Program-made: the position numbers and the translations under genes
Shown here: one piece after another, positions 26,324 to 63,164 of the stretch
Layout: each line of letters begins with the position of its first letter
Position numbering within the stretch: the first letter of the stretch is position 1
DNA from: Balanoglossus misakiensis
Taxonomy: Eukaryota; Animalia; Hemichordata
Length of the DNA stretch: 64,000 bases
Direction: 5' to 3'
Assembly: GCA_040954595.2 (NCBI GenBank)
Contig: CM082588.2
Span: forward strand, 2,177,027 to 2,241,026
The notes under the pieces: model-generated
Seen by the model: the letters and a program-made list of their open reading frames with translations, nothing else
Told to the model about the DNA's origin: nothing
The model's database searches: none

Positions 26324-26341
26324 TTGATGATGATGATGATG

Positions 26342-26374
<33 letters not shown>

Positions 26375-26405
26375 ATCATGATGATGATGATGAGGATGAT
26401 GATGG

Positions 26406-26460
<55 letters not shown>

Positions 26461-26533
26461 GATGATGGTGATGATGATGATGGTGATGATGATGATGATG
26501 ATGGTGATGGTGATGATGAGGAGGAGGAGGAGG
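26324..26533 (+). repeat. Imperfect (GAT)n microsatellite of ~200 bp ending in (GAG)n, in SHPRH intron 1
   Basis: Direct reading; it lies between the donor at ~26099 and the acceptor at ~26605. Confidence 0.95.
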
Positions 26534-26650
26534 AAATGCAATCTTTTTAATGGAAAAATAGTACCGTGATTGTAACTTGACTGTATGTGTGTCTTGTCTT
26601 TTCAGGTATATTATTATTTCCGCCAGTTACTGATTTAGGTATCAAGCAAT

Positions 26651-36228: not shown

Positions 36229-39200
36229 ATGACTCGTCTCGCACTCTTCCTCGTTATCGGCCTCTGCGCCTTGGGTAAGTATAGCCTATTTGGTGTTCTG
36301 CCCCCGATTTCTCTACAAGCTAGTCGAGATTCTCAAGTCATAAGCGGGAACTCTTTAGCTAGATTTCACCTGCTGCATCCGCTGGTATAATTTGACAAGC
36401 ACATAATACTCGGAGTTCAGAGTAATGTGTAGGGTCATTTAATATGCAGCCTTTCACAGGTGTTCAGGCACCAACGAGAAATTTCCTAAGCGCAGGAACG
36501 CACGAAATTGATGATGATATTACAGTACGTGGCATCAAAACTTGACCCGAAATATTCGCCCTTTGCCAAAGCACCACGTCCATAATTTCTTTCATATATA
36601 CAAATCTATCCGTATTTGAATGCAGGTGTCATATTGTAATAAAAACTATGTTACCACAAAAATGTTTTTGAGGTGTTAATTTACACTTGCTTCTGCGACT
36701 TCAAGTTCACATTTTAAAAATCGACAAGGTTTCTGCACTCGGTGTATTCATATGTTCATTGGTTGTTTGACAGTTTTCCCTCGTTAAGTTCCGTATACTA
36801 GCTGTATTTTTTTCTCTCGCCCTATTCCTAAGAAAATCTTGCAACGCGAAGGCAATGTGTCGACATTGATAATTAGTTTGGAAGTTGTTTTTGGAAAATA
36901 CAATTGGGGGAATGCGGGGAGGCCATGCAGATAATATAACCGGCTAATCCTAAAATGCTGTGTGTTGAATGGAAATGTGAATCCCATCAAACCATACGGG
37001 TCTCTTTGTCTGTTGGTATGATGCAGATTTTCCCAGGTGGTCTGCACGAATCCCGCCCATTTCAGTGACTGACACGTGTTATGCGTTCGTACTTATCTTC
37101 GGTGTGAGGATGTCAAGTGGGTAACGTTGTTCTGTGAAGTGGCAACCCCCGAGTTTTTCTTGTCTTTGCGGGGGCGGTGTGATGCGACCACGGCAGTTAT
37201 TTTAAGAACCCCGACCTCATAGTTTGTCCTGTCAAAGTTCGGCTGTGCGGCTGCCAAGAAAGCTTGTCGGTTGTTGTAAACGCTTTGGTCTAGGCGATGC
37301 AATTGCACGCCTCAGTGTATACCGTTATATACCAGCTCGGCCAGTCGAGATGAGGCGAGAAAAAGGGCTGGTTTGTCACGCAATCGTGGTATGTTTGACC
37401 AGGAAAGTTCACTCTATAATAGTGAGTGTTTTGTATCAGCGCCAGCTATATTTGATGTGTATGGGACAATCGGCCAATCAAGAAATCTCGACCAAGTAAC
37501 ATAGACATGGTGGGCGCGTAGGGTCTTTTTTTAATTCATGTTTACCTCTCAAAATTCTTCGTGATAAAGTTACGAGTATTAACCCCTCTCACTCCCTCTC
37601 GTTTTCATCTAGGCGCCAATGCCCAACTGGGCGAAGGACCCTTGGCAGACAAACCACCAGTTGCCAAGCTCATGTTCTTGCGCAACCTTCTTGGCGGGGG
37701 TGGTGGCGATGGAAACCCACTCATGAAGATGATGATGATGAAGCGCATGTTTGGCGGGGATGGAGATGGTCCCTTCGGTGGAGATGGTCCCCTGGGCGGT
37801 GACGGCCCACTTGCCCGCGCAATGGGATCAGACAACACCCCTAACCCACTCCTTCGTGCCATGTTCATGCGTCGTCTTGTAAGTACATGCCGACACCTCT
37901 CTATTTCGTACCATGTTTCAAATGTCAGTTCGTTGGCAAGGGTTACACTCTCACTGATATTTTACAGGCACAAGGCGGCGGCGGTGGTGGTGGTCCATTC
38001 AGCGGCGGCGAAGACAACCAAAGTGTCATGCGCCACCTGATGATGTTCCGCGTCCTGGGACAACAGATGGGAGAGAAGATCATCGAGAAGGCCGTTGACC
38101 TGAACAAAGAAAACAGAGTCTGGTCCTTCCAGTCCACTCTGTCATGCGACTGCGCACTGGAATACATGTAAGTAAAACAATACGTGTACCAAACAACTGG
38201 GGACATTACATCCAACCACGGGCCCTCCACACAGAATATATGGAAGGACTGTTGGAATCAGAAGCTTCCATTTGACGAGTCTTATACATCTTCTTGCCAA
38301 CAGGACGGTATCTTGTCCAGGCAGGCGTGACACTTCCCGCAGTTAGTTAAGGCAGTGCAGGAAACAATTGCATTACATGTATAGGGAAATCAAAATAAAA
38401 TCTTACAGACTTAGGAATCTTATTTTTGCCTTTACTATTGTCTTTTAGCGACGACGAAGGCAAAATGGCCGGTTTCACCTTTGACCTTGTGGAAGAAGGT
38501 AAGTGGTTATCTTTTGAGGGCATGTGACAGAACGCGGGAATAGATCCGAGAATAGGGGTCGTTTCTTTGAAGACGGTAAATGAAGACCTTTGGTTGGTTC
38601 TTCTGAAATGAACACTGACTGCTATTTCTATTGATTTCAATTTTCTAGTCTGCAAGACAGCCGGAAAGAAATGCGTCACCATCTTCGACGATTCCAGTAA
38701 CTGTTTCACTCACCATGCCGGCGAACATCCAAGAACTGGCAGCGGTAGGTGAAACTCATTTCAAGGTGCCTCTCTCTCACTCACTCACACATACACTTAT
38801 TCTTGCTCCAAGACTGTGTGATACTGACTCCGTCTCACATTTCTTGGTGGAAATTGCAGGTCTGTTGGGAAGGAACTACGATATGTGCATGAACTGGATC
38901 GACACCAACATTCGTCAACACTCTGTTAGTTTCACCAAGCCATACTGGCTGGAAGGCAGCGAATCTCATTTCTACGTCAAGGCTGGCAATCCCAATGGCT
39001 TCGAAGCAGACAAGTTGGCTGGCAAACGCCTCGGTAAGATTCCGAATATTGGCTGTCTCAATGTGCACAAGACATTTCTATAATCCATTCTGCAACCGAC
39101 CGGGATATTTTGTTGATTGGGGAATGCCTTCAAGTTGACTTCAAACACTTTCAAACACTTTCCATTTCTTGCAAACTTTTAATAATTCTTGACTGTTCCT

Positions 39201-40023
39201 TGAAATTTAATAATTATGAATGCACTGCTTTGTAGGTTTTGTTGACGGTTGGGCCAGTGACCCAGCTTGCCTGAGACAAGCCTCCGACGACGACCAACTG
39301 GCCGAGGTCGAAGCAGACAGACCAGAGGTCGTCTACGGCAGCAAAGACAGTCTGATCGAAGATCTGAAAGCAGATAAGGTAGATATATTAAGACTTCAAT
39401 GGATGAAATGCTTTTTGGTCACCGGTTTAATGAAGTTTCTGCTGACTTGTTCGTAATGATGGTCCATAACCAAATCATTCGTGTCAGCGCTTGCTTAACA
39501 CTCTCTCCTCTCCTCTCCTCTCTCTCGCAGATCGATGCCATCTTTGTGCTTGATTCCTACGTCTCCCAAGCCGCTCAGCTTGGCTTTGTACCAGTTGGCC
39601 CAGCCGTCAACTGTGGCTCCGGTCACTCGCACGGCATGGCCCGCAAGGACAGTCACGCCATCTCATGGTTTAACGATGCTCTGACCCAGATGATGGAGAG
39701 CGGCACATACTACAAGCTGTGTCGACAGGCCAGGCAAAATCACGGTAAGTTCACGTAATGTAACTCACAAAGTCGCCACGCCGTACTTTATCTCTGAACA
39801 ACGGCCAAAAGTTCATGATAGTGCATCATAGCGAGTTATGAATAGGATTTCTAAGGACATAAAGGACAAAATTACTGTTCTTATCTGATCTCACGTAACA
39901 AAAATGCTTTCACTACCGAGTCACGAGCCAAACAGACAGGCTTCAACAATCCTATTCTAACTTTTTTTTCTCTTTTCCCTTTCAGCCCACAAAGGTTCAA
40001 TCAACTGCATCGCACCACAGTAA
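36229..40023 (+). CDS. Secreted SBP family-3 (HisJ-like) domain protein A with Gly/Met-rich N-terminal repeats, ~408 aa
   Basis: Exons 36229-36274, 37613-37878, 37968-38167, 38449-38498, 38649-38744, 38860-39033, 39236-39378, 39531-39744, 39986-40023 (1227 nt, open). Signal peptide MTRLALFLVIGLCALGANA; SCDCALEY; GKMAGFTFDLVEEVCKTAGKKC; RQHSVSFTKPY; LAGKRLGFVDGWASD; DLKADKIDAIF; GMARKDSHAISWFNDALTQMMESGTYYKLC. Confidence 0.9.
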
Positions 40024-41839
40024 ATTCAACAGAAGAATGCTGCCGTTGATGATAACATCGAGTTGAATGGATGGCCGGTTTTTTACATTTTTGATACCGC
40101 TTTACTTCTTCCTCTCCCAAAGTTCATTAAAAAAACTAAAAGATTGACGATGATTTCTTCGGATCTTCCCTGTCGCTTATTTCAAATAAGCTAATAAATA
40201 AAACTGTACAATATATTCGTAATTATTGTGTCGTTGTGTTGAATTTTGCGTATGTGAAAAAAATAAGAACACAATTGGAACTATTTTGGGATAATTGCAC
40301 ATCGACTTTTTCCACGTGTTCGAACACATGAGCAAATGAATATCATATCGATGTTTGTCAGTCTTCTGCGAATGTATGCGTGACTGTTGAAGCGATTAAT
40401 GTCTCAAGAACAGCTGAACGGATTCAAATCGAACTTGGCACAAGGTACCGTTTGAAAATGGCAAGAACTTGGATCTGGGTGGGCGTGGTTTGCATATTAC
40501 TAGTACAATGTACATGTACTGACAAGCTGAACGATGCAAAAAGGAATCATATACTGTACAATAAAATAGAACTTAATTTCTACAAAGAAAATAATACACA
40601 CTCGAATAAAATATGCAAACCATTAAACTAGCAACACATTCTCTGTAACTTGAAACTGGTCACCATGATTCATCACTTTACACCAATACAGATATTTTGT
40701 TTTCATTGTGTCAGGTTCACTTCAAACACCTTGCCTTGCAAGTCTTTTCGGTCACCTGACAAGTCTAACAAAAGACAACCTTATCAGTGTACATCCCGCA
40801 GTTTGATTATTGGCCATGGGAAGAGGTTTTCGAGAGAGGAAAACTCTTCAGGATAGAGGCCATGTTAAGTATGACGTAACTGGCTTGGTGACAAAGGCTT
40901 GGTTTGATTGTGTGAGTAAAAATTCGACGAACCAACATCTCGAGAATGACCGGAACTGCTCAGAAAGGGGGAATTGTGGGAAGAATAATTACTCGAGCAT
41001 CATGTCGCTCTGATCCATACATGTTATTTCGCTCTCTTCCCGTGTGTCCCTCGGCCAATCACACTACTGCAAAGGTTTCATGGTAAGTGCACGTGACCAC
41101 CTGTAACTGAAATTTCCCCCAATAACTTGTCCTTTGCTGTAGACGTAGTATATTCCCGCCCATAAATAAGGTGGAAAACACCCATAGAAGTGTCCAGGGC
41201 ACTACACTCGCCCGTTCTAAGTCACATTTGCCCCAACTTCAAACCTTCACACCAGACCCACAGCAAATTTCAGACGCCAACAGCTCATATTGGCGACCCG
41301 GTCTATAAGAGTGTCTTGCACGGAACTGAAAAAAAAAACAACTTCAGTATTGTGTGTGTATCAATAAAAAAGTTTTAATTGTGTCCCAAACAACCAAAAT
41401 TTGTACGCAAATATCCAAAGATGTACACACCCGTCTATTATTTTGAAAAAGACAATAAGACCAACTCTCGTAAAATAAAAACAACCTTGTGCGAAAAATT
41501 ACAATCTATACGTTGAGTTTATTCGTTGAATCAGCCCATTATTGTGACGTATGTCGTTTATCAGTGTGTTCCGTTCCATTCGCAAACCAAATAATGAAGG
41601 AAAACAATATTTAGTAAGTCTGGAATTACCGTTTCCCGTCCAGAATCTGTTCGCGTTTACGTTAAGGGCATATTTACTCCGGTTATTTTGTTGATAAGTC
41701 TTTTGGGTTCTTATCAGTGACCTTATATTGGGTCATTGGGGTCATCGCGATGGCGATATCCGGCGGCGAGGACGATAAAACCGGCTAAAATCTTTCTACC
41801 TACAACGGATCGTACCATTGTGGTCGCAACCTACGTACA

Positions 41840-44800
41840 ATGGCTCGTCTCGCACTCTTCGTCTTTCTCGGCCTCTGCGCCTTGGGTGAGTATATCCTAC
41901 ATTGTTTTTCATGTATTTACATATTAACACCTGTGTTCCGAAAAATGTAAATGGTTAGCCGTGTATATAAAGGGAAATAATTTTCCCGGTTGAAATACGC
42001 GGTTTACGAAACTTGTTTTGTAGGCCTTATTGCGCGTCGTTTTGATTGCGTCAAGTGATCGACTATTGCGGCATTTCTTCGTCATATTTTGTTGAAAGAC
42101 ACATTTTCGTATAGAACAAATTTTTCTGTCAAGTCTCAACGCATCCCACATGCTACGAGGACATGTTTGTTCAAGTCGCATCGCTAGATCACTGCACATA
42201 TTAATATCAGCGATGAAACTGCTCATCTCAGTCTGCAGCCGTTCTGAGTAAGTCTGTTGAGTATTGTGAGACCGACGTGTAATTATGTAACTTTTTTCTC
42301 CATCCATCGAATTGACCCGGGATGGATTTTCGCACCTGCTATCGGAATTCGCTCCCCCAGACATTTTCTTTCATTGTCAGAGAGAAGAGCAGGGTTTCTC
42401 GCACATGTAAATTCCGTTATGCAGCATGTTAACCGATCAAGGTGCTAAAAGCAGTGCGCGAAAAACATCTGAGTGTTATTCTGACGTCGAACACTACCCT
42501 CTCCGTCAATTTAGGGACTTTGCCAAAAGCCGCACAACGTTTAAATCTCAAACACGTGCGTTCAGATAGGGTAACCGCAGTGCAGGTGCCTAGCTCTGAA
42601 AGGTGTTCGTGTGTGAAGAAAAAAATCTCACTTGTATTCAAATTTAGCTTTTGCGGTCACCAGGATGTCAAACGACTGGCACTGTTTGGCGTACTAGTTG
42701 ATTAGCACTTGTCTTTCGCATGGCGTGATGCGACCGCGCCAGGTATTTTTAGAATCATATCATATATCTTGTCCTGCCACAGTATGTGTACGAGTACCTT
42801 GTGGTCAAGAGGTACTATCCGATAAACGCGGTCAATTGTTAGTCGCCTGATAGTTGAGGGCTGTAAAAATTAGAGTTTTGGTCGGTCAAACATGATGACT
42901 AAGATAACGTAGCCATCACGAAATACAATAGTGTGCAGCATTCAAGATACGCTCTGTTTGACTCTTTTGCCGCCCAGACAACTAAAATCCGCCTGCCCTT
43001 TGGTCATTTTCAACCCATCTACAAAGTGTATACAGCTGCTTGGTGGTGGCGCCACCAACGGCGCTCTCGAGTCAAGACGTTTCGGCAGTTCTTGACGTCT
43101 ACCAAATAAGCGTTACAATAAAGCTATCAAAACAGTCGATATCGCACCATAATATCATCAAGAACAGAGATGCGCTTGCCCTTTCCGTATCAGCGCCCTC
43201 TCGAAGTCATAATGATTGCCGTCCTATTTGGGCAACTAACGCTAAATCATACTCCAAATGCATACACAACACTCAATCAAATAAACAAGGCAACCAGTAC
43301 AAGTAATCTCTCTTTTTCTCTCTCTCCTCCCTCTCGTTTCCATGTAGGCGCCAATGCCCAACTGGGTGAGGGACCCCTGGCAGACAAACCCCCAATGGCC
43401 AAGCTCATGTTCTTGCGCAACCTTCTTGGCGGGGGTGGTGGCGATGGAAACCCACTCATGAAGATGATGCTCATGAAGAATCTCTTTGGCGAAGATGGAG
43501 GCGACTTTGACGGCATCGGTGGCGGAGAAGGACCCTTGGCTGACAAACCACCAATTGCCAAGCTCATGCTCATGCGTAACCTTCTTGGTGGAGGTGGTGC
43601 AGGTGGTGACGGACCTCTCTCAGAGAGACCCCTTCTTAGGATGATGATGATGAAGCGCATGTTTGGCGGGGAAGGAGATGGTCCCCTGGGTGGTGACGGC
43701 CCACTTGCCCGCGCAATGGGATCAGACAACACCCCTAACCCACTCCTTCGTGCCATGTTCATGCGTCGTCTTGTAAGTACATGCCGAAATCTCTCTATTT
43801 CGTACCAAGTTTCAAATGTCAGTTCGTTGGCAAGGGTTACACTCTCACTGATATTTTACAGGCACAAGGCGGCGGCGGCGGCGGTGGTGGTCCATTCGGC
43901 GGCGGCGAAGACAACCAAAGTGTCATGCGCCACCTGATGATGTTCCGCGTCATGGGACAACAGATGGGAGAGAAGATCATCGAGAGGGCCGTTGACCTGA
44001 ACAAAGAAAACAGAGTCTGGTCCTTCGCTTCGACTTTGTCATGCGACTGCGCATTGGAATACATGTAAGTTAGGCCAAGTTATCTCTGTGGCATGACAGA
44101 ACAAACAAACAAACAAACAAACAAACAAACAAACAAACAAAGAAGCATTCAAACGAATAAACTGACTGACCGACAGACTAGCAGACTTGTCAATATCAGA
44201 CGGACAGACACCCAGACAAAAATTTGCATTGATTTCGTCCAAAACATTTTGTTTATACAATTACTGTTCACAAAAAATGGGGAAGAAAATGTAAATTGTC
44301 GAGTTAGCTACTACATGTATCTTTTTGTTGGTTTCCAGTGACGATGAGGGTAAAATGGCTGGATTCACATTTGATCTTGTCGAAAAAGTTTGCGAGACAG
44401 CCGGAAAGAAGTGCGTGACCTTATTTGATGATTCCAGTAACTGCTACACTCACCATGCCGGCGAACATCCAAGAACTGGCAAGGGTATGTACGACTCGTT
44501 AATTTTTCTGGTGGTTGGTTGGTTGGTTGGTTGGTTGGTTGGTGGGGATTTAGCATTGAAGGTGGATACTTTAACGCTATTGACCAATGTTATCCCATGC
44601 CTTCTTATGGATAGAGAATTGCATATAAACATATGAGGTTTCTCTGTAAAAAAAATTGTTTACAGGTCTCCTGGCAAGGAACTATGATATTTGCATGAAC
44701 TGGATTGACACCAAGATTCGCCAGCACTCGGTCAGTTTCACCAAGCCTTACTGGATGGAAGGCAGCGAGTCTCACTTCTACGTTAAGCTTGACAACCCCC

Positions 44801-45855
44801 ACGGTTTCGATCCACATAACCTCGCTGGGTCCAGCATCGGTAAGTTTCTGTTTTGGGGGATACATGTACATTAGACTGTACTGTCGTGATGGGCATACTT
44901 CTTTTGGCCAAAGTGATTGCAAAGACGAAGTACTAGTATAGTATTTGTAAGACCCACAGCATAATCTAGATTTAACACACTCCATTACAGGCTTTGTTGA
45001 TGGCTGGGCTAGTGACCCGGCTTGCCTGAGACAGCAAGCTACTGATGTCCAACTCGAAGCAGTTGAAGGTGACAGACCACAAATTGTCTATGGAAACAAA
45101 GATTCTCTCATCGAAGACCTGAAATCAGATAAGGTACTCTATTACAAAAACACCAGACATGCACACCGTGAGTGTCTTTGAATGGCATTGTCCGCAGTCC
45201 CCTACAATCCCTGCAAGTATTCTCACGAGTATTAAACCCTGTCTCTGTATCTTTCTCTCCCCCCCCCCAGATCGAAGCTGTCTTTGTGCTCGATTCATTA
45301 GTTGGCCAGGCCAGCGAGCTCGGTTTTGAGCAAATCGGCGCTGCCGTCAACTGTGGTTCCGGTCACTCTCACGGTATGGCCCGCAAGGACAGTCACGCCG
45401 TCGCATGGTTCGACGAAGCTCTGGAGAAGATGGTCAACACTGGGACTTACTACAAACTGTGCCGTGATGCAAGAACCAAACATGGTAGGTTCACAGGGAC
45501 GCTTACAATAGACCATTTCCCAAACACCACGAGACTCTGCGAGATGTCGCGTGGCTGAACATGTTGTACGAGAGGACACTCTCACGTGACACAGGACAAA
45601 AACATTGTCCATCGGTAAAACCTCCCTCACAAACTCTATTCCGCGTGGATAGAGTCCACCCCCAGATTATCATAAGTGCTATAAAGCGAAATTCTTCGAG
45701 ATGCAAGATTTTCTTGCGTCCTGATAATGTGTGAATGTATGCAGTGATCGTTTTTTATTTGATTCGCGAACTTATTTATTAATCATTTGTTTATTTATTT
45801 ATTTACTTCAGGTCACAAGGGAGAAATCAAGTGTGTCGCACCCCAAGACGTATAA
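41840..45855 (+). CDS. Secreted SBP family-3 domain protein B (close paralogue of A, longer repeat region), ~464 aa
   Basis: Exons 41840-41885, 43348-43772, 43862-44064, 44339-44484, 44666-44839, 44991-45133, 45271-45484, 45812-45855 (1395 nt, open). Signal peptide MARLALFVFLGLCALGANA; ends GHKGEIKCVAPQDV*. Confidence 0.9.
44098..44141 (+). repeat. (AAAC)n microsatellite, intron of gene B
   Basis: Direct reading. Confidence 0.9.
44512..44542 (+). repeat. (GGTT)n microsatellite, intron of gene B
   Basis: Direct reading. Confidence 0.9.
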
Positions 45856-46666
45856 AAGAACAGACACCACCAAATCGAATTTATGGCCGTTTTTTACACT
45901 TTTTGATAATATTGAACGTCTTCCATGTTCAAACCTTTTAGAATCTGGCGTATCGATGGGAATTATCTCGCTATTAAGATGTCAAATAAAAACGTAAAAC
46001 AATAAAAACATCTTCTCATAAATATGTTGTTCGTGTGAGTGTATGTATGAGAGAGGGGGCGATGGGAATGATAGAGGAGAGGGACAGAAAGATTATTTTG
46101 CTGTATAGATTTCTATGAGAGTATCCCCCTCCGCGGATTAAACACTGAAATAGTGAACTTTACGCAGTTAAATGTCAATATCAATCTCACTGTATGCGGC
46201 ACGTCATCCGATTGATGCATTTTGGTCGAATAAACTTGGTGAATGAATTTGCATATTGCTTGATCGCAGGCGACCGCTGCAGAAAATGCAAAAACATTCT
46301 GAAGCTGTTCAATTCGTCAGATGAATTGTACATATTTATACAGGATTCGGTAGTACTTGGCATATGCCAGTGGCCTCGTTCTGTCCACTCTGAGGTCGAC
46401 TAGAAGAGCAGGCTGTAACATGTCTCACTTCCGACAGGTGGAGATAGCAGACGGTCACATGTGACAGACAAACAGGTGATCCAAAACAATGCATAATTTA
46501 CAGCGGGGATCATACTATTATCAACGAGAAAGACACGACAGGCAATCTGATAAGGGCCTCAAATCAGGCCATAGACTCAAACTTTATCAATTTGCTGATA
46601 ATTGTTTGGATCGAGGACGAGATAACCGTGGAGGCAGACAGTACACGATCCGATCATTCCTCGAAT

Positions 46667-48816
46667 ATGGATCGCTTTCTTCGGGTATTGTTGGTAGGTC
46701 TTGCCTATTTTACGCACGGTAAGTCGAGATTCGTTTCCTCTATCGCACACTCTGTCAGTTGAGACTGTGTCCTAGAATGGAACAGATTTGATTCAAAATG
46801 AGACACTTTTTGCTACAGCCCATCATCAAAAATTCTGTGCTATTCTCGAAAATTCGTCGGCATCCACATCAGCGCTCTCTTCCAAAGTTTATGAGGTGTA
46901 CGTGGCATTCGGCTGAGCTAACTTGGTCAAGTGTTGACCCCATAAGCAAATCCGCTGACAGCCGGTTCACAACATCGATAAAAAAACAGACCATGGGATT
47001 TACGTATTGTGTTTGGCTTTATCACCCAATTGAACATTATTTGTGTCACGTCAGATAGCGAGACTGTCCAGACATCCAAAGTGCAGTCCGACTGATTTAT
47101 CCGAGTTGTCCTTATAACCCGGCCAGGACAATGAAACGGAAACAATCACACGAGCTTTGCTGATAAAAATGCTGTGATTTCGTGCGGGTATTTTTTTACA
47201 ATACATGTTATCTGTAGAGTGCATGAGGAGGACATGGTGACCTGACTAGAACCTCGACGTGTTGATGGTCCTCCTCATGCCCTCGGACCCCCCCCCCCAC
47301 AAATTCTGTATAACAAATTCTTATAGGTGCTTGGACTTGGTCGACATCAGGCAATGACCCCTGGGATGGAGATGCGGGATTACTTGGTGGTGTCCTTGAC
47401 AACGGACCGCTTCAAGGACGCCATCTTATACAAAGAATGGCGATGAGTCAAATTGTAAGTTTCGCCAAAATATAAAGAAAACAGACGTACATCGGAAAGA
47501 GGGGGAGAGTGAGAGGGAGGGAGAGGGAGAGAGAGAGAGAGAGAGAAAAGGCAAGCGTGAGAGCGGAGAGTTTTAATGATTTATATTTGTGTCTAATTTA
47601 CAGCAAGACGGCATCGGATTTGCTGGTAGCAGAAATGATCGCCATAGCCTGCTTCAGCATCTGGTACTGTTTCGGTCAGTGGCATCCCAAATAGGCGAAC
47701 ATATCTTGAGGGAGTTTGACAAAAAGAGAGAAGACGAAAGAGTCTACACGTTCACGTCATTCGACGGATGTGACTGTGCCATAGAATACGTGTGAGTAAT
47801 ATTTGGACGTAAATGGGTTTGCAGCATGCGCAGAACGTTTCGTGCTCGGCGAAATCCAATATAAAGTTCAAGTTTTCGGGCATGCTTAGGATTCTAAACT
47901 GAAAACCGATCGATTACGAATCGCAAATCGACATCTACATGTTACTTTTCGGGTTATGCCTTTCTCAGACAAGAACATGGTTATGGGAAATCTGAGTTAG
48001 AAATGATACAACGTTTTATTTCCATTACAGTGATAAAGGAATCAAGAAAGGTTTTATCCCTGACTTCATCAATGCAGGTACGTTGGCAATTGTTGTTGCG
48101 ATATACTCTCTCCTAGGCCGTGCATATTGTTCTTACAATTCTGATAGAGTGCACCCTCATCCCGTCACATACAATGAGAGCAACCTTTCCCTGTGTTTTC
48201 TTCTTCTTCTTCTCTAGTGTGCAAAGAAGCTGGCAAACGATGCGTGTTGACCTATAACCCAACATACCTATGCTTCACCCATGAGGGCGAAATACCACAC
48301 GCCGGAGACGGTGAGTATTAGTATAACAGCGTTGGCTTTGAGGTGGGCTGACCACAATTTACTATATTATATAAGCAAAATCTAAACGCGAAATTCCCTT
48401 GGGTCCATGTGTTCACCTGTATATTAGATTGCACTGTATTTCCATACCTAAATACAAACATCTTGGAGTGACTGTTTTTCTCTCGGCTGTATCTGCTACT
48501 TCGAGCTCTACAGAATTTGTGTCGATTTTATTCGAAGAACTCTAATTCAATAACGATTTGTGTGACCTTGTGTTATTTATAAGGGTTGCTGGGAAGAGAC
48601 GTCGATGTGTGTATGTTGTGGATGAACACGACCAAGCGTCAGTTATCTGTGTCGTTCACCGAACCAATCCTAGCTTTTGACAATCCTGCGACGTTCCACG
48701 TGAAGGCTGGCAATCCTCGAAAATTTGACCCGACCAATTTAGACGGGAAGCGAATCGGTAGGCACAGGTCGTTCACCGTACTAGTTTTGGGGGAGTTCAG
48801 AGAGAGGGGGGAGAGT

Positions 48817-48856
<40 letters not shown>

Positions 48857-49649
48857 TCATTCCACCCAAGGATGAAGTGAATAAATAAACCTGTTCTCAT
48901 ATGCTTATAATCTTTTCAGGATTTATTAATGGTCTCACAAGTGATCAAAGTTGTTTGGCAGCGTCGAAAAGCAAATACTCTGGAGGTGACAGTTTAGAAC
49001 CTGAAAATGTTCTATACCTGAAAAACGTACAGCAATTGCTTGAAGCGCTCACAAATGAACAGGTACACAAATGTATTATCATTCTAACTAATTCACACAC
49101 ATAGTCACCTACCTACCTACCTGCATATCTACATAATTACTAATTGCTATTTTCAGATCGACGCCGCTTTCATTTACGAGATCGCATTAGCACATCTCTT
49201 GGATGGTAAGTTCGAGAAGATCGGTGTGAGTACCGAGTGCCACACCCTTAACACCCTCCACGGCATGAAGCGGAAAGACAACGAACTGGCGTGGTTCGAC
49301 GAGACTCTGCGAGAGATGAAGGCGAATGGTAAATACTATGCCATGTGCCACAAAGCGAAACGAGACCATGGTGAGTACATAGCGAATTGCAAGTTGTCAT
49401 TTGCCTTTCGTATGGAGAAAGATGTCGAGTGTGAGAAATCATTTTCTCATACACATTATTTTTTATCATGGTTGACGGACTATGTCTGTAAACTGCACAT
49501 ATTCACATCGTCTCCTTTGAAATGAAACCAATGAATTAAGTGTTGCGTGATCGAAATGAGATTAATTTAATCATTAATCCCTTTTACTTCTTATACTATA
49601 CGTCTCTCTTTCAGGTCACATGGGAGATCTCCAATGTTTGGACGATTAG
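46667..49649 (+). CDS. Secreted SBP family-3 domain protein C, ~357 aa
   Basis: Exons 46667-46718, 47327-47454, 47604-47791, 48031-48077, 48218-48310, 48584-48757, 48920-49062, 49157-49370, 49615-49649 (1074 nt, open). MDRFLRVLLVGLAYFTHGA; RVYTFTSFDGCDCAIEY; GFIPDFINAVCKEAGKRC; KRQLSVSFTEP; LDGKRIG; IDAAFIYE; GMKRKDNELAWFDETLREMKANGKYYAMC. Confidence 0.88.
47501..47546 (+). repeat. (GA)n-rich microsatellite, intron of gene C; a further (GA)n tract at ~48800-48850
   Basis: Direct reading. Confidence 0.85.
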
Positions 49650-50408
49650 CGGAGGGAAAATATACTACTTCTTCTTGATTCATGGCAAAGTTTTATCACT
49701 TGCATGGCTTACTAAATCGAAACACTGGTGATAGAAAATTGATGCTTATTTTGAAAATCGCAATAGCATTAAAATCTGATGGGCACAAACATTGTTTTCT
49801 TGTGGTGGTTTTTTTTTGCTGTAATAACAGACAGACAGACAGAATACGGACATGCTATAGATATTCGTTCCATCGTGGCGGGCTGCTCGACTATAAGACC
49901 TCCATAGAAACTGGATTCAGTGCATTTGAGACAACTACGCTTTTGCTATAAAGCCAAATTCTTACAACTTACTGATACCTGTTTTCCATGTTTGCTGCAA
50001 ATGTCTTTTTACAGGCGACTTTTAGATTTTCAATTGTGGTGTCTTGGTTATGTTATGATGTCTAGGTTTTCAATGGTTCAGTGACCAGGTGAACCGCATT
50101 TCTTTTGTTTTAACCTACCAAGTGACCAGGTGTTAATGAATATGTATTTTTGTCGGTATAAAAGGCACGTTGCCTTGCTGCTACTTGCATACTGGGTTAG
50201 TGCGTTGTGTCGTCTCTACGTCGATAAATTTACACCCGACCTCGTGTTTGCAACCTATGTGTGGTACCGTCAACATGTTGACTAGTCTCGCGAGAACCAC
50301 ACCGAGGAAACAAAGTTTACGGTTGACTTTTGGACACAGAAATCATCATCTAGTCGGTGTCGCCATCATCGTAAAGTGACTGCGTGTGTCGTGGCAGACC
50401 ATTTCAGT

Positions 50409-53120
50409 ATGATTCGGCTGTGTTTCCTCCTTGTAGCATGTGGTATCGCCTTAATACACGGTCAGTACCCACACAACACGTTCATTCAAAAGAAAGTAAC
50501 AACTCGATCAAAGCAACCAAGGGTGAATTGTGCGAGATAAGTAAACATTACAAGTTCCATCAAAATTAGGCCTCTGCGGCGGCGATCTCGACACAACCCG
50601 CAAATGTGTTGCAGTCAATTTGATACTTGGGGCAAATGTTCCATGTTAATTGTGAATCTCTTTCGTTGTGATTGTGTTGGCTTACTCGATAATATGAACA
50701 GTATTTCTCTGTTCCTTAAGGTGGCCATGCTATCGACATTTTTAACAACCATGGTTTGTACAGAGATGGACCTTTGCCATCCGTCGGTGCGATGATGATC
50801 AATCAACTCACAAACAACTTAGGGGATTCATCAGGCATACCAGTCCCCCTAGCTAGGGCATTGGTCTCAGAGAGGATCCAAGCCCCCGTGATGCGTGCGA
50901 TGATCGCGCGATATCTCATGCAGGTTAGCCGAATATGCAAAGCCATGTCACGTCACATGATTTAAATCTTTCTTCGCTAATGACACAGCCAAACTATATT
51001 ATGATGAAAGTCGCACAAAGAAGACATCGAAACGAGATTATATTTTGAACTTTCTGTTTTGTCTATTGATTCGTAAAACTTAGATCATATTAATAATCAT
51101 AGTCATAATAATACCAGATGCCTTTTTTCTCATCATTAGAACTTTGACCTCTTCACAGGAAAGGCAACGAAATGAGAATGAAAATCTGCTGCGACATCTG
51201 AATATGTTTCGTTTAATTGGAAGTCAGGTCGGACAGAAAGTGTTGGAAAGAGCTGTTGCAATGGAAGAAGACGCCAGAATTTATAACTTTGCGACGTATT
51301 TTAACTGTGAATGTGCTTTGGAATACACGTACGTTGATCCGTCTCGTCTTGTAAATTGATTTCCAACTGTGTATTAATTAATTAAGGCTCTTGCAGTAAA
51401 ATTTGTTGGTGAATGAAGTAACAAAACATACATTCTTCATTTCAGCGGTCAACACGGAGAAATGAAAGGATTCACGGGAGATTTACTTCGTGCAGGTATG
51501 TGGTAATGGAAGTGCCACGGGGAGGGGGTAATGATACTAAGTTCATATAATGTTGATTATCAATTTAGGAAAACCTCTAAAACAGAATTACAACGTGGAA
51601 ACAGGTCTACTGTGGTGAATTCTTGTCATTAAGACGTCTGTATGTTTGTTGTTGTTGTGGCTAGTTGTGTCGCTCCATTCATTAACTACCGTTGATCACA
51701 TCAACTCTCGTTCATTGTAGTTTGTAAGGAAGCCGGGAAGAAGTGCACATACCAATACGCAGATTACAGTCGGTGTATGTCCCACGGACGTGGAGATCTA
51801 ACAAGTCTTGGAAGTGGTATGTATGGATGCTGCTGTGGCACATGTCATTGCAAAGACCATGGCGGTGGTGGTGGTGGTGGTGGTGGTGGTGGTGGACATC
51901 TAGTCCAGCTGTGCCATAACACCGTTAAACTGTGGGTTTTGCTCGAAAGTATATTTTTTAAATTGTTTAATCTTATTTTGCAGGTTTGCTGAGCCGACAG
52001 CTTGATGCCTGCCTGTCCTGGTTCAGAAATTCACAGCGTGAACTATCTGTTGCCTTCTCAGACCCGTACTGGGTTTACGATAATTCTGCAATGTTCGTCA
52101 TCAAAAAGGGCAATCCGGACAACTTTGACCCAGAAAATATCGCCGGAAAGAAAATCGGTAAATCCAACACACCATTGCACCACAGACAGCTTCGTCATTC
52201 TATGCACCTTGTCCCCCCCCCCCAATGTTCTGTCAAACGATGAAGCACAACAATGCACGCACCCATTAAACCATACTTCTGTACGTTTTATTTTACATCA
52301 GGGTTTTTGGCTGGTATAGCCAGTGACATGAAGTGCCTGCTGACTGCTGACAGAGACATCGGCGCGGAGAGCATAGCCACAGAAGTCTACTATGATTCCA
52401 GATCTAAGATGTACAAAGGTTTTAAGGATGGCGAGGTGTGTGCGCATTTAATCACGAATAAAGTTTTCCAAAATGTCAACTATGGTACTTTTCATGTCAG
52501 TTTTCACCCCAGAGGCAACAAAAATATCTATAGGTTTCGTCCATCTACAGGTTGATGCTGTGTTCCTGTTACGTATATCTGCAGGCGCGTCAAGAGACCT
52601 CGGTGATTTTGATCTGATTGGAAAACCGATCAAGTGTGGCAGAAGTGGCGAACTTCACGCAATGACGAGGAAGGACAACACGTTACCATGGTTTAATGAC
52701 GCGTTAAGGAAGATGAAAGAGAACGGTCAATATTATGCTCTGTGTCGTCAGGCAGAGCAGGAACACGGTATGTCCATATACATGTATTTAAAGGGATGAT
52801 GTATTAAAGGGCGACGATCGTATTATGCGCTAAACCAGAAATTCTTGTTACAAAAATTGTATACAGTCAATCCCATAAGGCAGTGTGTTGTCCTAACAAG
52901 AGACAAGATGGCGGCGCCCATCGTCTGTGTCGGGAGATCGGGAAAAGACAGAAAATTGGGTGAAAAGAAGGGACAAAGCAGGAACATGGTATGTGGGCAT
53001 ATTTTTAAGGGGTTCAACATAGTGGCATCAGCGGAAGCTGGGCAGTTTACGCTGTTGTTCGTTATTTTTGCTCTGTTTCTGATTTTTGCAGGTCATATGG
53101 GAGAAGTTGGCTGCGTGTAG
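50409..53120 (+). CDS. Secreted SBP family-3 domain protein D, ~374 aa
   Basis: Exons 50409-50460, 50721-50923, 51159-51328, 51446-51495, 51721-51816, 51984-52157, 52302-52435, 52551-52767, 53092-53120 (1125 nt, open). MIRLCFLLVACGIALIHGGHA; RIYNFATYFNCECALEY; GFTGDLLRAVCKEAGKKC; QRELSVAFSDPY; IAGKKIG; VDAVF; AMTRKDNTLPWFNDALRKMKENGQYYALC. Confidence 0.87.
51861..51895 (+). repeat. (GGT)n microsatellite, intron of gene D
   Basis: Direct reading; it lies between the donor at 51817 and the acceptor at 51983. Confidence 0.9.
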
Positions 53121-55472
53121 TCTACACTCCAGCCTGCTTCTTGGTTTGATTGAAATGCTGGAACTTTGTGTGACACCACACCCCCTGAGTTTGTCAATTT
53201 CAAAGAGTAGAGTTTTCAATCATGTACCATGGCGGATAGTCCTGAGTTTAACTTTTCTTAGCAGTTTTCAAGTATTGATTGGAAGAATGCGCAGTGTTGA
53301 AGAGTATGCGCTTGTTGATTTGAAGGCTGTTAAAAGAGTAACCGTTGTCTTGAATTGAGCTGACTCTTCATAAATAAACTGTAATTTCAATTATTTTATC
53401 ACTGTGTGAGTCATTCGTTGTTGTGATTGGACGACAGCGCAATCCAACCGTGGACACAAATTCTCATTTGTACATTTTAGAGATGAATGGTGTGAACGTC
53501 ATTTAACATATCAAACAAACACCAATGTCCAAAACATGTACTGGCAGAAACCACGTGTAGATATGCGATAAGCGCTGTAGAAATTTCAAGGGCAAGGAAA
53601 CAAAAGGACCAATGAAGCCCAATGACGTGAGAGGCAAATATCACGTGAACTGGAAGTGAATGGTTGACGTGCAGTTTTGTTGTTTCTCATTGGTTGACAG
53701 CCACCTGATTTTGTGGCGTCGATTCACTTTGCATATTTCGCCCTCAAGCGCTATCTTATACACCACCCGCCACATTCTATATTAGCCGTCCCTCAACCAT
53801 AGCGTAATCCTGGATCCCTGATTCCAAACTCTTTAATTGAATCTCCTGGGAGTTGACCTTGGTTTTAAAAGTTCAATGAGGTCAAAATATTTGTTTTAAA
53901 ATCTTATACAAGATTTATATATTTAGGTCGAGTTTAGTTAAGTTAACCTTGGCCGCGTACTAAGTTTTGCGCGCACTTGACTTTGACGAGGTACAATAAT
54001 AACATAAATCACACCAATTCTTATTTTTTCTTGCCATCGAGCCGCTGTTGTTTTATGCGCAAAAATCCACACTTACTCAAAAACAGCTATTAATTTCCAT
54101 CGGAGTTTGGATACACGGTATAAGCTTATACGGTTAGCATTTCGCGTACACAGATGCATGTTATCGACCTATTGTCCACCTGCACAAGATACCACGATGG
54201 GGGTCATTCATTGTCTGGCGCTCTGGTCGAATCAGCTAAATTTTCTCCTTAGAATCTTGGCCTTCTTCCAGAAGATAAGACTCGATACTGAAGGATCGGA
54301 AATGATCTAGGCCTAATATTATATCGATCAAAACAGGACATAAAAAGAACTAAGGCATTTTGCCAAGAATTTGAACTTCTCCGGAAAAAAACACTCATGC
54401 GTTTTTATCTGAAAACAGGAAACTAAGCACTCAACAATATCATACCAAGAGAGAATTTTATTGATTGCGGTTTGGCTAAATATCAAATATTTTGCTCGAA
54501 GATCTCTGGATCTCTACGGTTCTTGTGCACTGGGGGCGCCAGTTAAGATTCATTCATCAGAAAGCAGCAGGAAAAAACTTGATTTGCAGCTGGGAATACC
54601 ACAGCGCCCCCTTGAGCTCTTTTCGGCTTATGGGTCACCGTTTTTTCCCGTTCACGATTTATTCCATAAATGCCGCCAGACTAAACGTGAACAATGACAC
54701 AAATGATGAGAAACACAAGTTTACTGTTCTTAAATGCAAAATTTTCTCAATCTTCGGGTGAAACGTCTGCTTGCACCGATCTTCGTCTTAAGGTTGTAAC
54801 CGCTTTGATTGGCTGAAATGATTTAAGTAACGAGCATTGTGATTGGTTGAAAGTTTGATAGTGTTCGCTGCACCAAGTTCTGATATAACTTCTCGTATTT
54901 CATTGTAAAACGGAATATTATGATCATATGCGTCGAGTACAGTTTAATCATAAATATTAAAAATAAATAACGACCGACGTGGTGAGATTTATTCTTTTAG
55001 GTCTTTCATGTCGCGAAGACACAAATTTCATTCAACTGCCTGTATTTCGGCCACTCGTATCAAAATTATTTGCTGGAAGCATGCATGGTCTGGTACTCCG
55101 ACCTGAATTAGATTCTTGCCCCCGTTTATCTTCTAACCGGTCTTATCAAATAACGAGGGGAAATAAATTAATCATTTCGCCCGAAAACAATCTGGCGTCG
55201 AGCCCGTTTGTCCGGCCCCAATATGTGTTTTGCGATGACCTCGACCATCGTGCGAGCTCCTCGTAAAGATTGTAAATTAACAACCTGTCCATTGTTATCG
55301 CAGGGGTCAGTTGACCAGACGGTCCAGCAGCGGAACTGCCTTATCTTGCGCTAACATCGTGTGATATAAAAAAAATCAGACAAAGAATTATCAATCACTG
55401 CATTGGAGTCGTTGTCTACCCGGTGCTGCTATTGGCGTCTCACATTTGCATCAGACCAGCTCAGCAAGCATC

Positions 55473-57323
55473 ATGGCTCGTTTCTCTATCCTTGCTCTCC
55501 TGTGCCTGGCCCTTTGCGCCACGGGTAAGTATAGCCATACGCTGACTTAGAAACTCCAGGCACACGTCCACGTACATATTTCATATCCACACTAGGCAGA
55601 TCCTCACGCACCTTTTACATGTACAAATATTCTCCTACAGACGCTAAATTAATCTAACTATTACTTTTCTCACAACTATTATTTTCTTGACCAGTTTTTC
55701 AGACTGTTAACTGTTTCTGAGATCTTGGCTTGTTTTCAGCAGTCAATTTCTTGTTTATATATTCGAAATTGGAAATTTACGCAAAAGTTAAACTTTCATG
55801 CGCTGATAGTTAACTTTAATATCAACCCGGATAGGTAAAACGAAATAAAAATCTTCTTGTCATTTTCAAGTGTAAACACATCATCTGTTCAAGCCACGTA
55901 CCGGCTACGTTTGCTGATTTTTCCCTCAGAAATCGATCGCTGAACTCAATCAATATCACTCTTGCTGACTCAGCCAGAATTCCGTCCGCAGATCGGTACG
56001 GTCTGACGGGATTTTTTCCGTTCGTGGTGTTTATCAAGAAATTTATATACTAGACTATAGAGAATCACCCGATCTCGAACAAATTGTCGACTTTGTGATC
56101 TCTCATCGAATCTTTCTACAACTTTATTTGGGCCAGTGATGGGATGACCGACAAAGCGGTTCGCTGGCAGGAGACATTGGCTGTGCCGTCCATAGCTACC
56201 GTCTATTCCTCGCTTGGCGCTAAAAAAAAACACTGTCATTGCCTGTGTATGCGTTGCTTCAATCTCAAACTTGAAGCTTGCAAACTTTCGTTTCCGGGGG
56301 GCTCAAACTTTACTCACTGACCCTCTCCTCTTCGCCCTTCCTTGCAGCGTATGGATACATCGGCATTGAAGACCAGTTCCCCGGGGGAGTTCCAGATGGT
56401 CTCTTCACGGCGATGGGCGTAAGTTTCCTTATGATGCAAAATTGTGTTACCTAGATTCCTGAACGTATTTCACTCAAAACACCGCCCTTAACCCCAGTTT
56501 TTAAAATTAACAAGTTGACTTAGAAATATTCACATTAAAGTACCACACAAAGGCCACAATATGGGCATTTATCCCCCCCCCCCCTGCACAATCATGGTAC
56601 GGTCCAAGAGATAAAAAGTAATCTATGACCGCGCATCAATCATTCGCCGCCAATCTATCTGTGCACTCATCTCAGGGAGGGAACGCAGATAAAAATGACT
56701 ATTTTCATACCTGTAGCTAGCCTCATCGATACAACAATAAGGCTGAGGTTGATTAGGTGATACTTGGCGGTTGATAAGGTCACCTCGACAATAGCTGCAG
56801 GTCATACTCGATTTTGATAGAGCGCCATCGTGCGTTGATATAGATTCTAGACTTTGTCTTTTTTTTCTGAAAGGGTGTCTTTGGTGGAGAGGATGGAGGA
56901 GATGAAGCAACTGATGAAGAAAAGGCTGATCTGGAAGAAACCGAACGGGAACTTGGACCACTGGCCACAATGCTGACCGGAGGCGGCAGTGGCCCTCTGG
57001 CAGACAAGCCTCTTCTCAGAATGATGATTCTCAGACGTGCTCTCGGTGGTGGACAGCAACAAGGGTTCGGTCCATTCAGTGGTCTGCAACGCCCATCTGG
57101 TAGTATGGCTCGCAACATGATGCTCTTCAGAATGCTCGGAAAGAATATGGGTGAGAAGTTCTTGAAGAAGGCATACGACACCAAGCAGAGCCGCAGGATT
57201 TACACCTTCGCCTCTTCCCTGGGCTGTGACTGTTCATTGGAATACATGTAAGTGGTGAACTGTAGCTTTCTTAGAGTGAGAGAGGAGAGAGAGAAGAGAT
57301 TGAGGGGGAGAGAGAGGGAGGGA

Positions 57324-57365
<42 letters not shown>

Positions 57366-58888
57366 TAGAGATAGAGACTGACCAGAAACTTATAAGCACG
57401 CTGGACCCTGGTTGGCCAGGTGATGCCCCTTGTAAAGTTGTGATGAGCACGATTCACGTTGCATTTTCGCTCTCTTACAGTGATGACGAATACAATCTCA
57501 AGGGTTTCAGTTTTGACCTCATCAACGCAGGTAAGGTCACTTGAAGACTCTTCAATCTTGTACTTCTGTTTCTCGAACACGTTGATCGTATTTTGCGTTT
57601 GTGTTTGCATTCTTTTCGGTTAGAACAGCGCCGATTTACGCAGATATCTGTCAGCTGGCATTGCACTGTATTCACTGCAAATTCTCGTTTCTCCACAGTC
57701 TGCGAGGCCGCCGGAAAGAAGTGCGCTGTCATGTACGACGCTGGCACCAACTGCTACTCACACGTGCACGGCGAACACGGCAGAGCTGGCGATGGTGAGT
57801 AACACAGTCAGTTGTAAATGTTCAACCCCTCAGCGTGGTTAACATTTGTAATCGTATGCATCCTTGGGTAACTTTTGCACTTCTTCAGGAACTTTTTCAC
57901 AGTAGAAATAACATTCATGTCTGGACGGTGATTTACAGGTCTGATGAACAAATACTACGATGGTTGCCTTACATGGATGAGGACACACGAACGTGAGCGC
58001 TCCGTTTCTTTCACCGCTGGTTACTCCAAGATCAAAGACAACCAGGCTCACTTCTACGTGCTCCAGGATAACCCCAACGCTTTCAACCAAGAGGCCCTTG
58101 CAGATGCTAACATTGGTTAGTGAAATTCAAAACAAGAGTTAACGTCTTCTCAACTTTGTGCTGTCCGTTTATTCATTCCGAAGTGTTACGCCCCTTCATC
58201 CTTCGGCCATGAGATACCAGCGGTAATAGCAGAAAATGGGTGAAATGTTGGCGGCTAAATGACGTATTCAAAATCTCACCAGTTTCTTACTTATTCTTGT
58301 GCAGGTTTCCTCGATGGATGGGTCAGCGACGAATATTGCTTGGCTAACCCCGGCGCAGACAGCGGCGGATTCGAAGGAGTGCGCCTCCACCCCGACAATA
58401 CCCACTACTACGCCACCAGGAAGGAGCTGTTCACAGATGTCCAGAATGGAAAAGTGAGTCCAACCCGAAGATGTACCGTCCTCATCATTATTAACCAAGT
58501 GGCACACATTCTACTACCTCTTTCTTGTACACTATTACTCAGAAAACAAAGTGCAAATCCCTCGCTAAGATGCACATTGTCAAACTGTGATTCAGCCTCC
58601 CGATTTGCACCAGCGATGTATATATAAACCTCTCCTTGTTCTTTATTCCTTCAGTTGGCTGCTGCATTCCTGGTCGATCTTAGCGCCAAGGAAGCCGAGG
58701 AACGCGGTTTTGAGAAGATTGGACCAGGCATCAGTTGCGGTGTTGACGACGACCTTCACATCATGACTCGCAAGGACAGCGACGTGTCCGAATGGTTCGA
58801 CGCCACCCTGGCTGAAATGAAGAGTAGTGGGGCTTATTACGGACTCTGCGCCAGATCATACCATGCACATCGTAAGTACCATTCAAAG

Positions 58889-58960
<72 letters not shown>

Positions 58961-59125
58961 TGTGTGTAATGTACATGAGAGATTATGCAGCTATGTCGAA
59001 AAACATTATACATGTACATGTAGTAGATAGACTATACAATCATTCTGCTTTTATTAATTTTTCTCCCTCTCTTTCTACGCACAGTTGGCAAGGGAGGATT
59101 CAACTGCGTCGGAGATGATGAGTAG
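55473..59125 (+). CDS. Secreted SBP family-3 domain protein E with acidic and Gly/Met-rich N-terminus, ~408 aa
   Basis: Exons 55473-55524, 56348-56418, 56874-57247, 57481-57530, 57699-57794, 57939-58115, 58305-58453, 58655-58871, 59085-59125 (1227 nt, open). MARFSILALLCLALCATAYG; GPLADKPLLRMMILRRALGGG; LGCDCSLEY; GFSFDLINAVCEAAGKKC; ERERSVSFT; MTRKDSDVSEWFDATLAEMKSSGAYYGLC. TATAAAA at ~55365; AATAAA at ~59353. Confidence 0.9.
57274..57378 (+). repeat. (GA)n-rich purine tract, intron of gene E
   Basis: Direct reading. Confidence 0.9.
58892..58958 (+). repeat. Perfect (GA)n microsatellite, last intron of gene E
   Basis: Direct reading. Confidence 0.95.

Positions 59126-60955: not shown

Positions 60956-63164
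<2,209 letters not shown>

Follow-up and report, generated by a model that had tools for sequence, protein, structure and literature searches.

Predicted extracellular family-3 solute-binding proteins encoded by a tandem gene array in the hemichordate Balanoglossus misakiensis

The closest described relatives of the proteins reported here are the bacterial polar-amino-acid-binding proteins of cluster F (LAO/ArgT, HisJ, ArtJ/ArtI, and GlnBP; PF00497, TIGR01096). In LAO, the amino group of the ligand is held by Ser72 and Asp161 (PMC5740067, Table 3), and passages of the same paper give Asn and Ser at the Asp161 site for the opine binders OccJ and NocT. These two and the ectoine-binding protein EhuB are family-3 members with ligands that carry no free alpha-amine, as is proposed below for the animal proteins. 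The latter are encoded in a stretch of 64,000 nucleotides from Balanoglossus misakiensis (contig CM082588.2, positions 2,177,027 to 2,241,026; hereafter the window), which carries a tandem array of five genes (g1–g5) and a sixth paralog (g0). Secreted, channel-free proteins that buffer or carry small molecules are familiar from animals: molluscan acetylcholine-binding protein and insect odorant-binding proteins, which often form expanded families, have unrelated folds and experimentally shown roles. The class II binding-protein fold is itself used by animals in transferrin.

With cluster F, the animal proteins share the predicted fold over the whole domain, a contiguous two-lobe chain, Cys38/Cys45, Arg77, and an extracellular location as predicted. 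They differ in being products of animal genes with introns and with no ATP-binding cassette (ABC) permease among the neighbours sampled, in the replacement of Ser72/Asp161, in the gain of two aromatic residues and six extra conserved cysteines, and in having an 11-residue insert, a C-terminal extension, and either N-terminal helical repeats or a type II anchor, at an overall identity of about 18%. The g0 clade resembles OccJ in its Asn at the Asp161 site, whereas the Ser91 signature of OccJ (Ser72 in LAO) is absent from the animal family. The EhuB model is the best NCBIfam match of the g0 orthologue (E = 5.7e-8), yet its score of 32 bits is well below the cut-off of 191, and just 3 of 17 members match it. 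The ligand-binding domains of ionotropic glutamate receptors (iGluRs) and ionotropic receptors (IRs), and cyanobacterial GluR0, likewise have the class II fold and a carboxylate-binding Arg; unlike the iGluR and IR domains, the animal domain has no channel segments, is not split, and lacks the amine-binding acidic residue.

The five array genes are on the plus strand, head-to-tail, from 36229 (ATG) to 59125 (stop). Their exon structures are predictions based on splice signals and homology. When splice sites were tested by script, all introns proved to be GT-AG and all frames free of internal stops. Gene g1 (36229..40023; 408 amino acids, predicted secreted) has nine exons (36229-36274, 37613-37878, 37968-38167, 38449-38498, 38649-38744, 38860-39033, 39236-39378, 39531-39744, 39986-40023). 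The youngest duplicate, g2 (41840..45855; 464 amino acids), is a copy of g1 with eight exons (41840-41885, 43348-43772, 43862-44064, 44339-44484, 44666-44839, 44991-45133, 45271-45484, 45812-45855). Nine exons each are found in g3 (46667..49649; 357 amino acids; 46667-46718, 47327-47454, 47604-47791, 48031-48077, 48218-48310, 48584-48757, 48920-49062, 49157-49370, 49615-49649), g4 (50409..53120; 374 amino acids; 50409-50460, 50721-50923, 51159-51328, 51446-51495, 51721-51816, 51984-52157, 52302-52435, 52551-52767, 53092-53120), and g5 (55473..59125; 408 amino acids; 55473-55524, 56348-56418, 56874-57247, 57481-57530, 57699-57794, 57939-58115, 58305-58453, 58655-58871, 59085-59125). Coordinates, frames, and introns thus agree with the initial annotation, which had described five intact, intron-containing genes for proteins of 357–464 amino acids, and the sequence motifs that it quoted are present in g1–g5. 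It had also assigned a signal peptide to each protein; by Kyte-Doolittle hydropathy, a hydrophobic stretch does lie within the first ca. 20 residues of all five. No 19-residue window exceeds 1.2 after this N-terminal stretch or residue 60, so that channel segments are not seen by this measure, and g1–g5 are predicted to be secreted.

The C-terminal domain of about 250 residues is 40–43% identical among paralogs and 78% identical between g1 and g2. Six intron positions in the domain, together with their phases, are common to g1–g5, except for one that is absent in g2. At this site (exon 44339-44484), g2 has undergone a precise loss of a phase-1 intron which is kept in g0, g1, g3, g4, and g5. 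The g1/g2 pair is under purifying selection with function kept (domain nonsynonymous divergence, dN, 0.144; synonymous divergence, dS, 0.918; dN/dS about 0.16). The open frames and the dN/dS of 0.16 rule out pseudogenes. A stretch of g1 comprising exon 2, intron 2, and exon 3 (37630..38173) is 87% identical to positions 43524-44070 in g2, and dS in the N-terminal part is 0.15 compared to 0.92 in the domain; this stretch is likely a partial gene-conversion tract. The N-terminal exons (37613-37878, 43348-43772, 56874-57247) code for repeats of a Met/Leu/Arg-rich unit that looks helical, with Gly-rich linkers in between. The copy number of the repeats varies among paralogs, with extra Gly/Met-rich repeats in g2, and the N-terminal exon of g5 has no Pfam match.

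A sixth paralog, missed in the initial annotation, was found by tblastn of the five array proteins against the window. This gene, g0 (22447..24550, minus strand; about 331 amino acids), is located 12 kb upstream of the array between a peroxiredoxin gene and the SHPRH gene, the latter separating it from the array. Its exons are 24550-24346 (donor uncertain), 24089-23996, 23852-23803, 23641-23513, 23398-23199, 23094-23017, 22925-22721, and 22481-22447, and four of its domain intron positions recur in the array. There is no hydrophobic segment at the very start of the protein; the 19-residue Kyte-Doolittle maximum is 3.66 at residue 28, a pattern predicted to represent a type II membrane anchor near residues 28-50. 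Protein g0 is 68% identical to an "arginine-binding periplasmic protein-like" entry from Ptychodera flava, and one of its exons matches proteins from P. flava (79%), Saccoglossus (75%), and Glandiceps (62%), which makes an enteropneust the likely host.

A two-lobed class II, family-3 solute-binding fold is predicted for the domain. Pfam scans covered homologues and single exons from the window rather than the spliced window proteins. The SBP_bac_3 profile (PF00497) is matched by 30 of 30 homologues at E ≤ 0.01 (alignment A3), the g3 orthologue scoring 37.4 bits against a cut-off of 26.4. Single exons stay below the cut-off, with PF00497 listed for 9 of 12 at E values from 5e-4 to 0.2 and g1 exons matching weakly at 0.004 and 0.01. 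Only 2 of the 30 homologues match Lig_chan-Glu_bd, a profile that many bacterial clusters match too. When the family profile was compared to the PDB, 67 sequences were retrieved at E ≤ 0.001 (best 5.6e-22); the 60 listed are all prokaryotic proteins of the solute-binding type or reconstructed ancestors. Structures were modelled for two orthologues, those of g3 and g0, in place of the window proteins. The AlphaFold2 model of the P. flava g3 orthologue has a predicted local distance difference test score of 87, and its best Foldseek match is Salmonella LAO (E = 2.5e-16); VIA-align superimposes model residues 96-350 on LAO residues 1-238 (Z = 20.7, root mean square deviation 4.0, 225 aligned positions). 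The top structural matches of the g0 orthologue are the same, and no eukaryotic iGluR chain is among the best 50 matches listed for each structure search. By sequence, hhalign, and VIA-align, the alignment to LAO 1-238 is continuous, with no gap at the channel insertion point. The model of the g3 orthologue has a 37-residue helix ahead of the domain, which typifies the secreted form. The SBP_bac_3/HisJ-type fold, and a contiguous, channel-free domain nearest to HisJ, LAO, and ArtJ, had been proposed from the letters alone; the profile matches and the models of the orthologues bear out the former, and the alignment together with the hydropathy analysis the latter.

The ligand pocket departs from this likeness. 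It was evaluated in an alignment of 67 animal domains with 12 bacterial rows, namely E. coli ArgT, HisJ, ArtJ, ArtI, GlnH, TcyJ, and GltI, and five proteins from a plasmid collection. The carboxylate-binding Arg77 is kept in 57 of the 67 animal domains, including all six window genes and 40 of 40 rows in the g0 and array clades. Asp161 is retained in a single animal domain (1/67; 0/6 in the window) compared to 10 of the 12 bacterial rows. Position 72 is Ser, Thr, or Asp in 9/67 animal and 10/12 bacterial rows, and no polar residue occupies it in g0–g5. Two aromatic residues, mostly Trp, occur in the animal family and in none of the 12 bacterial rows: at position 71 (58/67; Trp71 in 39 of 40 rows of the g0 and array clades) and at position 120 (51/67). 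The same register is obtained for the g0 clade with hhalign. Positions 11, 30, 52, and 161 vary among g1–g5, which fits diverged specificities, and an acidic residue near position 18 is found in all six window genes. The NCBIfam model for LAO gives P0002, the one member with scores listed, 30 bits against a cut-off of 256, and TIGR01096 is matched by 13 of 17 members at E ≤ 0.001. The initial annotation had described a likeness to HisJ motif by motif, which thus fails in the pocket, where Ser72/Asp161 are mostly replaced and two aromatic residues gained, and holds for the conserved Arg and for the disulfide cysteines.

Eight cysteine columns are occupied in 61–66 of the 67 animal domains. Cys38/Cys45 are common to the animal domains and 9 of the 12 bacterial rows; the other six columns are animal-specific. 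Two of the latter are jointly missing from one Lamellibrachia protein, a hint that these two form a pair, and four disulfides are predicted in all. Separately, a hemichordate subclade (P0025, P0037, P0041, and relatives) has both Arg77 and Trp71 replaced; judging from these substitutions, ligand binding may have been lost or changed there.

A profile made from one array exon retrieved 71 representative proteins, three of which (P0053, P0060, and P0075) were discarded as spurious because BLAST did not match them to the window proteins. Thirty of the 71 were looked up, and the 24 with a species name come from three hemichordates, the annelids Owenia and Lamellibrachia, and the gastropod Elysia. 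A second profile search, which yielded 23 proteins, added a crinoid, four sea urchins, three sea stars, a brittle star, and the brachiopod Lingula. Within these limited searches, which do not establish absence, no named match came from a chordate, an ecdysozoan, a cnidarian, or a non-animal. The family is thus named in hemichordates, echinoderms, a brachiopod, annelids, and a gastropod, a spread that rules out a recent lineage-specific transfer. Some members (P0016, P0019, P0021, P0046, P0064, P0068; from Owenia, Elysia, and others) have two or three domains in tandem. Several relatives from Saccoglossus and P. flava are encoded on common contigs with near-consecutive accessions, which suggests that arrays exist in these species, too.

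Database entries from Ptychodera, Saccoglossus, Glandiceps, echinoderms, Lingula, Owenia, Lamellibrachia, and Elysia carry the RefSeq/GenBank labels "L-arginine-binding protein-like", "arginine-binding periplasmic protein-like", or "uncharacterized". The names are automatic, and the pocket residues make the "arginine-binding" label probably misleading. An expanded family with possibly uncharacterised homologues had been suspected at the outset; six local paralogs and the automatically named homologues fit that view, although the family proved not to be local, spanning deuterostomes and lophotrochozoans.

Two of 160 metagenome stretches contain relatives, an intronless open reading frame (L006) and an intron-bearing fragment (L007). 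In L007, family exons are found at 204-296 and 811-862, and the first two domain intron positions are the same as in the window genes. A motif scan of prokaryotic genomes with an animal-specific pattern, which is sensitive only to close relatives, matched 29 stretches, none of them related. A word-index search with g1 exon 8 gave three candidates, none significant. In the ESM Atlas, the full domain led to SBP_bac_3 clusters, which according to that tool are not a sign of transfer; recognition of a 71-residue exon was low and uninformative. The best plasmid-encoded matches to the family are just 24–28% identical.

A tree was computed with IQ-TREE (LG+C20+F+G4) from 78 rows, 66 animal and 12 bacterial; glutamate-receptor domains were not included. 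P0045, which has an internal deletion, and short fragments were left out, an aberrant C-terminus of the Lingula protein was cut, and clade labels were assigned after a quick tree had been viewed. A long branch with 100/100 support has the 66 animal rows on one side and the 12 bacterial rows on the other. An Owenia protein is placed among the animal rows. Protein g0 belongs to a clade of echinoderm, hemichordate, and Lingula proteins that also holds the L006 reading frame (99/95), and is paired there with two P. flava proteins (99/92). The named full-length members of this clade that were read mostly have an N-terminal anchor; L006 looks secreted. The named members of the g1–g5 clade are all from hemichordates (97/89). 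Within it, g3 is sister to P. flava XP_070569209 (100/96; 56% identical), g4 to P. flava XP_070569187 (100/100), and g5 to Saccoglossus XP_002732193 (99/97). With a Saccoglossus protein as the partner of g5 and P. flava proteins as those of g3 and g4, most of the array is old, predating the split from Saccoglossus, and only g1/g2 is young.

With moderate confidence, we read the six intact animal genes as coding for likely extracellular family-3 binding proteins of ancient His/Arg/LAO-type bacterial descent, which would act as transporter-less carriers or buffers of a small carboxylate ligand other than a free alpha-amino acid. The two lobes would close on the ligand, and the kept equivalent of Arg77 would grip its carboxylate. 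The fact that Arg77 is kept while Ser72/Asp161 are lost suggests a ligand without a free alpha-amine, and loss of Asp161 goes along with N-substituted ligands in the opine binders, as described in passages of PMC5740067. Trp residues at the positions of Leu71 and Ser120 would replace the amine site, and an aromatic pair of this kind would fit a group that is N-substituted, betaine-like, sulfonium, or aromatic. Proteins of the g0 type, being anchored as predicted, may keep the ligand at the cell surface, and the secreted paralogs, with pockets that differ from gene to gene, may bind related ligands in body fluid or mucus. A more specific version is tentative: one bacterial gene, caught at or before the protostome-deuterostome ancestor, would have become an extracellular small-molecule receptor system with a tethered member and secreted arrays, retuned to betaine-, dimethylsulfoniopropionate-, opine-, or haloaromatic-type ligands. 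Marine invertebrates would then possess their own analogue of odorant-binding proteins, derived from a subunit of an ABC transporter that is itself missing.

Several points weigh against this interpretation. Residues were mapped to the pocket by sequence alignment at about 18% identity and not by inspection in three dimensions, a one-residue deletion at 69/70 makes the register of positions 70-72 soft, and g1, g2, and g5 have an Asp one column after 161. The two Trp side chains would have to face the cleft. The 67 rows hold many close paralogs and are not independent, and of the 27 rows that belong to neither main clade, 10 lack Arg77. The ligand role proposed for g0–g5 derives from the identity of pocket residues. 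Structure barely separates channel-type from transporter-type domains, given that the GluR0 core aligns to the g3-orthologue model with Z = 19.1, only 1.6 below the best match. We infer a horizontal origin with a tree of 12 bacterial rows and no receptor domains; with so few bacteria, it shows neither bacterial nesting nor a donor.

Among the alternatives, the proteins might be ordinary scavengers or sensors of free Arg, His, Lys, or Gln which pass their ligand to epithelial transporters or chemoreceptors. The nearest solved structures (LAO, HisJ, ArtJ, and GlnBP) and the kept Arg77 agree with this, according to PMC9602780, amino acids are almost the only ligands predicted for SBP_bac_3 members, and OccJ, with Asn at the Asp161 site like g0, binds Arg at micromolar affinity (PMC5740067). 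Hardly any animal member, however, retains either amine-binding residue, with neither Asp161 nor a polar residue 72 in any of g0–g5, and P0002 remains far below the LAO cut-off. We therefore consider amino-acid scavenging or sensing, as originally proposed for the array, unlikely. Conversion to a secreted enzyme has a precedent in the family, since cyclohexadienyl dehydratase arose from an arginine-binding protein (PMC7683729); this enzyme and its ancestors are among the PDB matches, and the remodelled pocket and the acidic residue near position 18 would be compatible with catalysis. No new invariant polar residues are seen beyond Arg77 and structural Cys/Gly/Asp, though, and the pocket-lining residues vary among paralogs, which leaves an enzyme quite improbable. 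A structural role in mucus or matrix, or protein binding in the manner of lectins, would leave the cleft without a small ligand, with assembly driven by the N-terminal repeats. The expanding amphipathic repeats of the array genes, the 37-residue helix, the tandem two- and three-domain forms in other taxa, and the hemichordate subclade without Arg77 would suit such a role, which is nevertheless improbable: Arg77 in 40/40 and Trp71 in 39/40 rows of the g0 and array clades are expected if the cleft still binds.

As to origin, any transfer from bacteria is likely ancient, because the family spans deuterostomes and lophotrochozoans, and the simplest reading is a bacterial transfer at or before the protostome-deuterostome split. 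Inheritance from an early eukaryote, or a glutamate-receptor ligand-binding domain that lost its channel and had its two halves fused, would instead account for the GluR0 core being near the structural top and for the two members that touch Lig_chan-Glu_bd. Alignments of the domain with bacterial proteins show no gap at the place of the channel, Cys38/Cys45 are shared with the His/Arg/LAO group, and PF00497 is matched by all 30 homologues compared to two for Lig_chan-Glu_bd, which many bacterial clusters match as well. We thus regard such an origin as rather unlikely. Bacterial contamination is ruled out by the introns and the animal neighbours.

If the preferred reading of ancient bacterial descent and transporter-less binding is correct, the family would date back to a very early transfer from bacteria to animals that two bilaterian superphyla have retained, and it would be a candidate for a class of soluble carriers, chemosensory or for osmolytes, in marine invertebrates. 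Ligand screens and in situ analyses are straightforward, since the proteins are small and soluble and sea urchins and sea stars used in laboratories carry orthologues; new binding specificities on this scaffold would be useful as biosensors. Direct homologues are already in the databases as automatically named entries, and their function is not described in the literature searched. No description of the animal family was found there, although supplements or subscription papers outside this set may list its genes. Family terms are absent from the portions covered of PMC4729200, PMC11175523, PMC10210618 (supplements), PMC9552553, PMC9602780, and PMC8050422, and from the main-text passages and supplements examined for two hemichordate genome papers. 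No papers are linked to six family gene ids.

The locus is part of an ordinary animal chromosome with spliceosomal introns and housekeeping neighbours, because neighbouring exons match Npa1, NDC80, CCDC34, AhpC-TSA, SNF2/SHPRH, and PB1 (7 of 8 neighbour stretches match a protein family). An Npa1/URB1-like gene (minus strand), NDC80 (plus strand), and a CCDC34-like gene (minus strand) are located within 1-34000. The peroxiredoxin gene (20226-22005, plus strand) has a signal-peptide-like start, SHPRH extends from 26643 onward (plus strand), and a PB1-domain, Gln/Pro-rich gene at 60957-63163 resembles TFG. Among these six sampled neighbours, the only ones looked at, there is no ABC permease. A long trinucleotide repeat of the (CAT/GAT) type at about 26290-26620 directly precedes SHPRH, and (GA)n tracts are present in several introns of the array.

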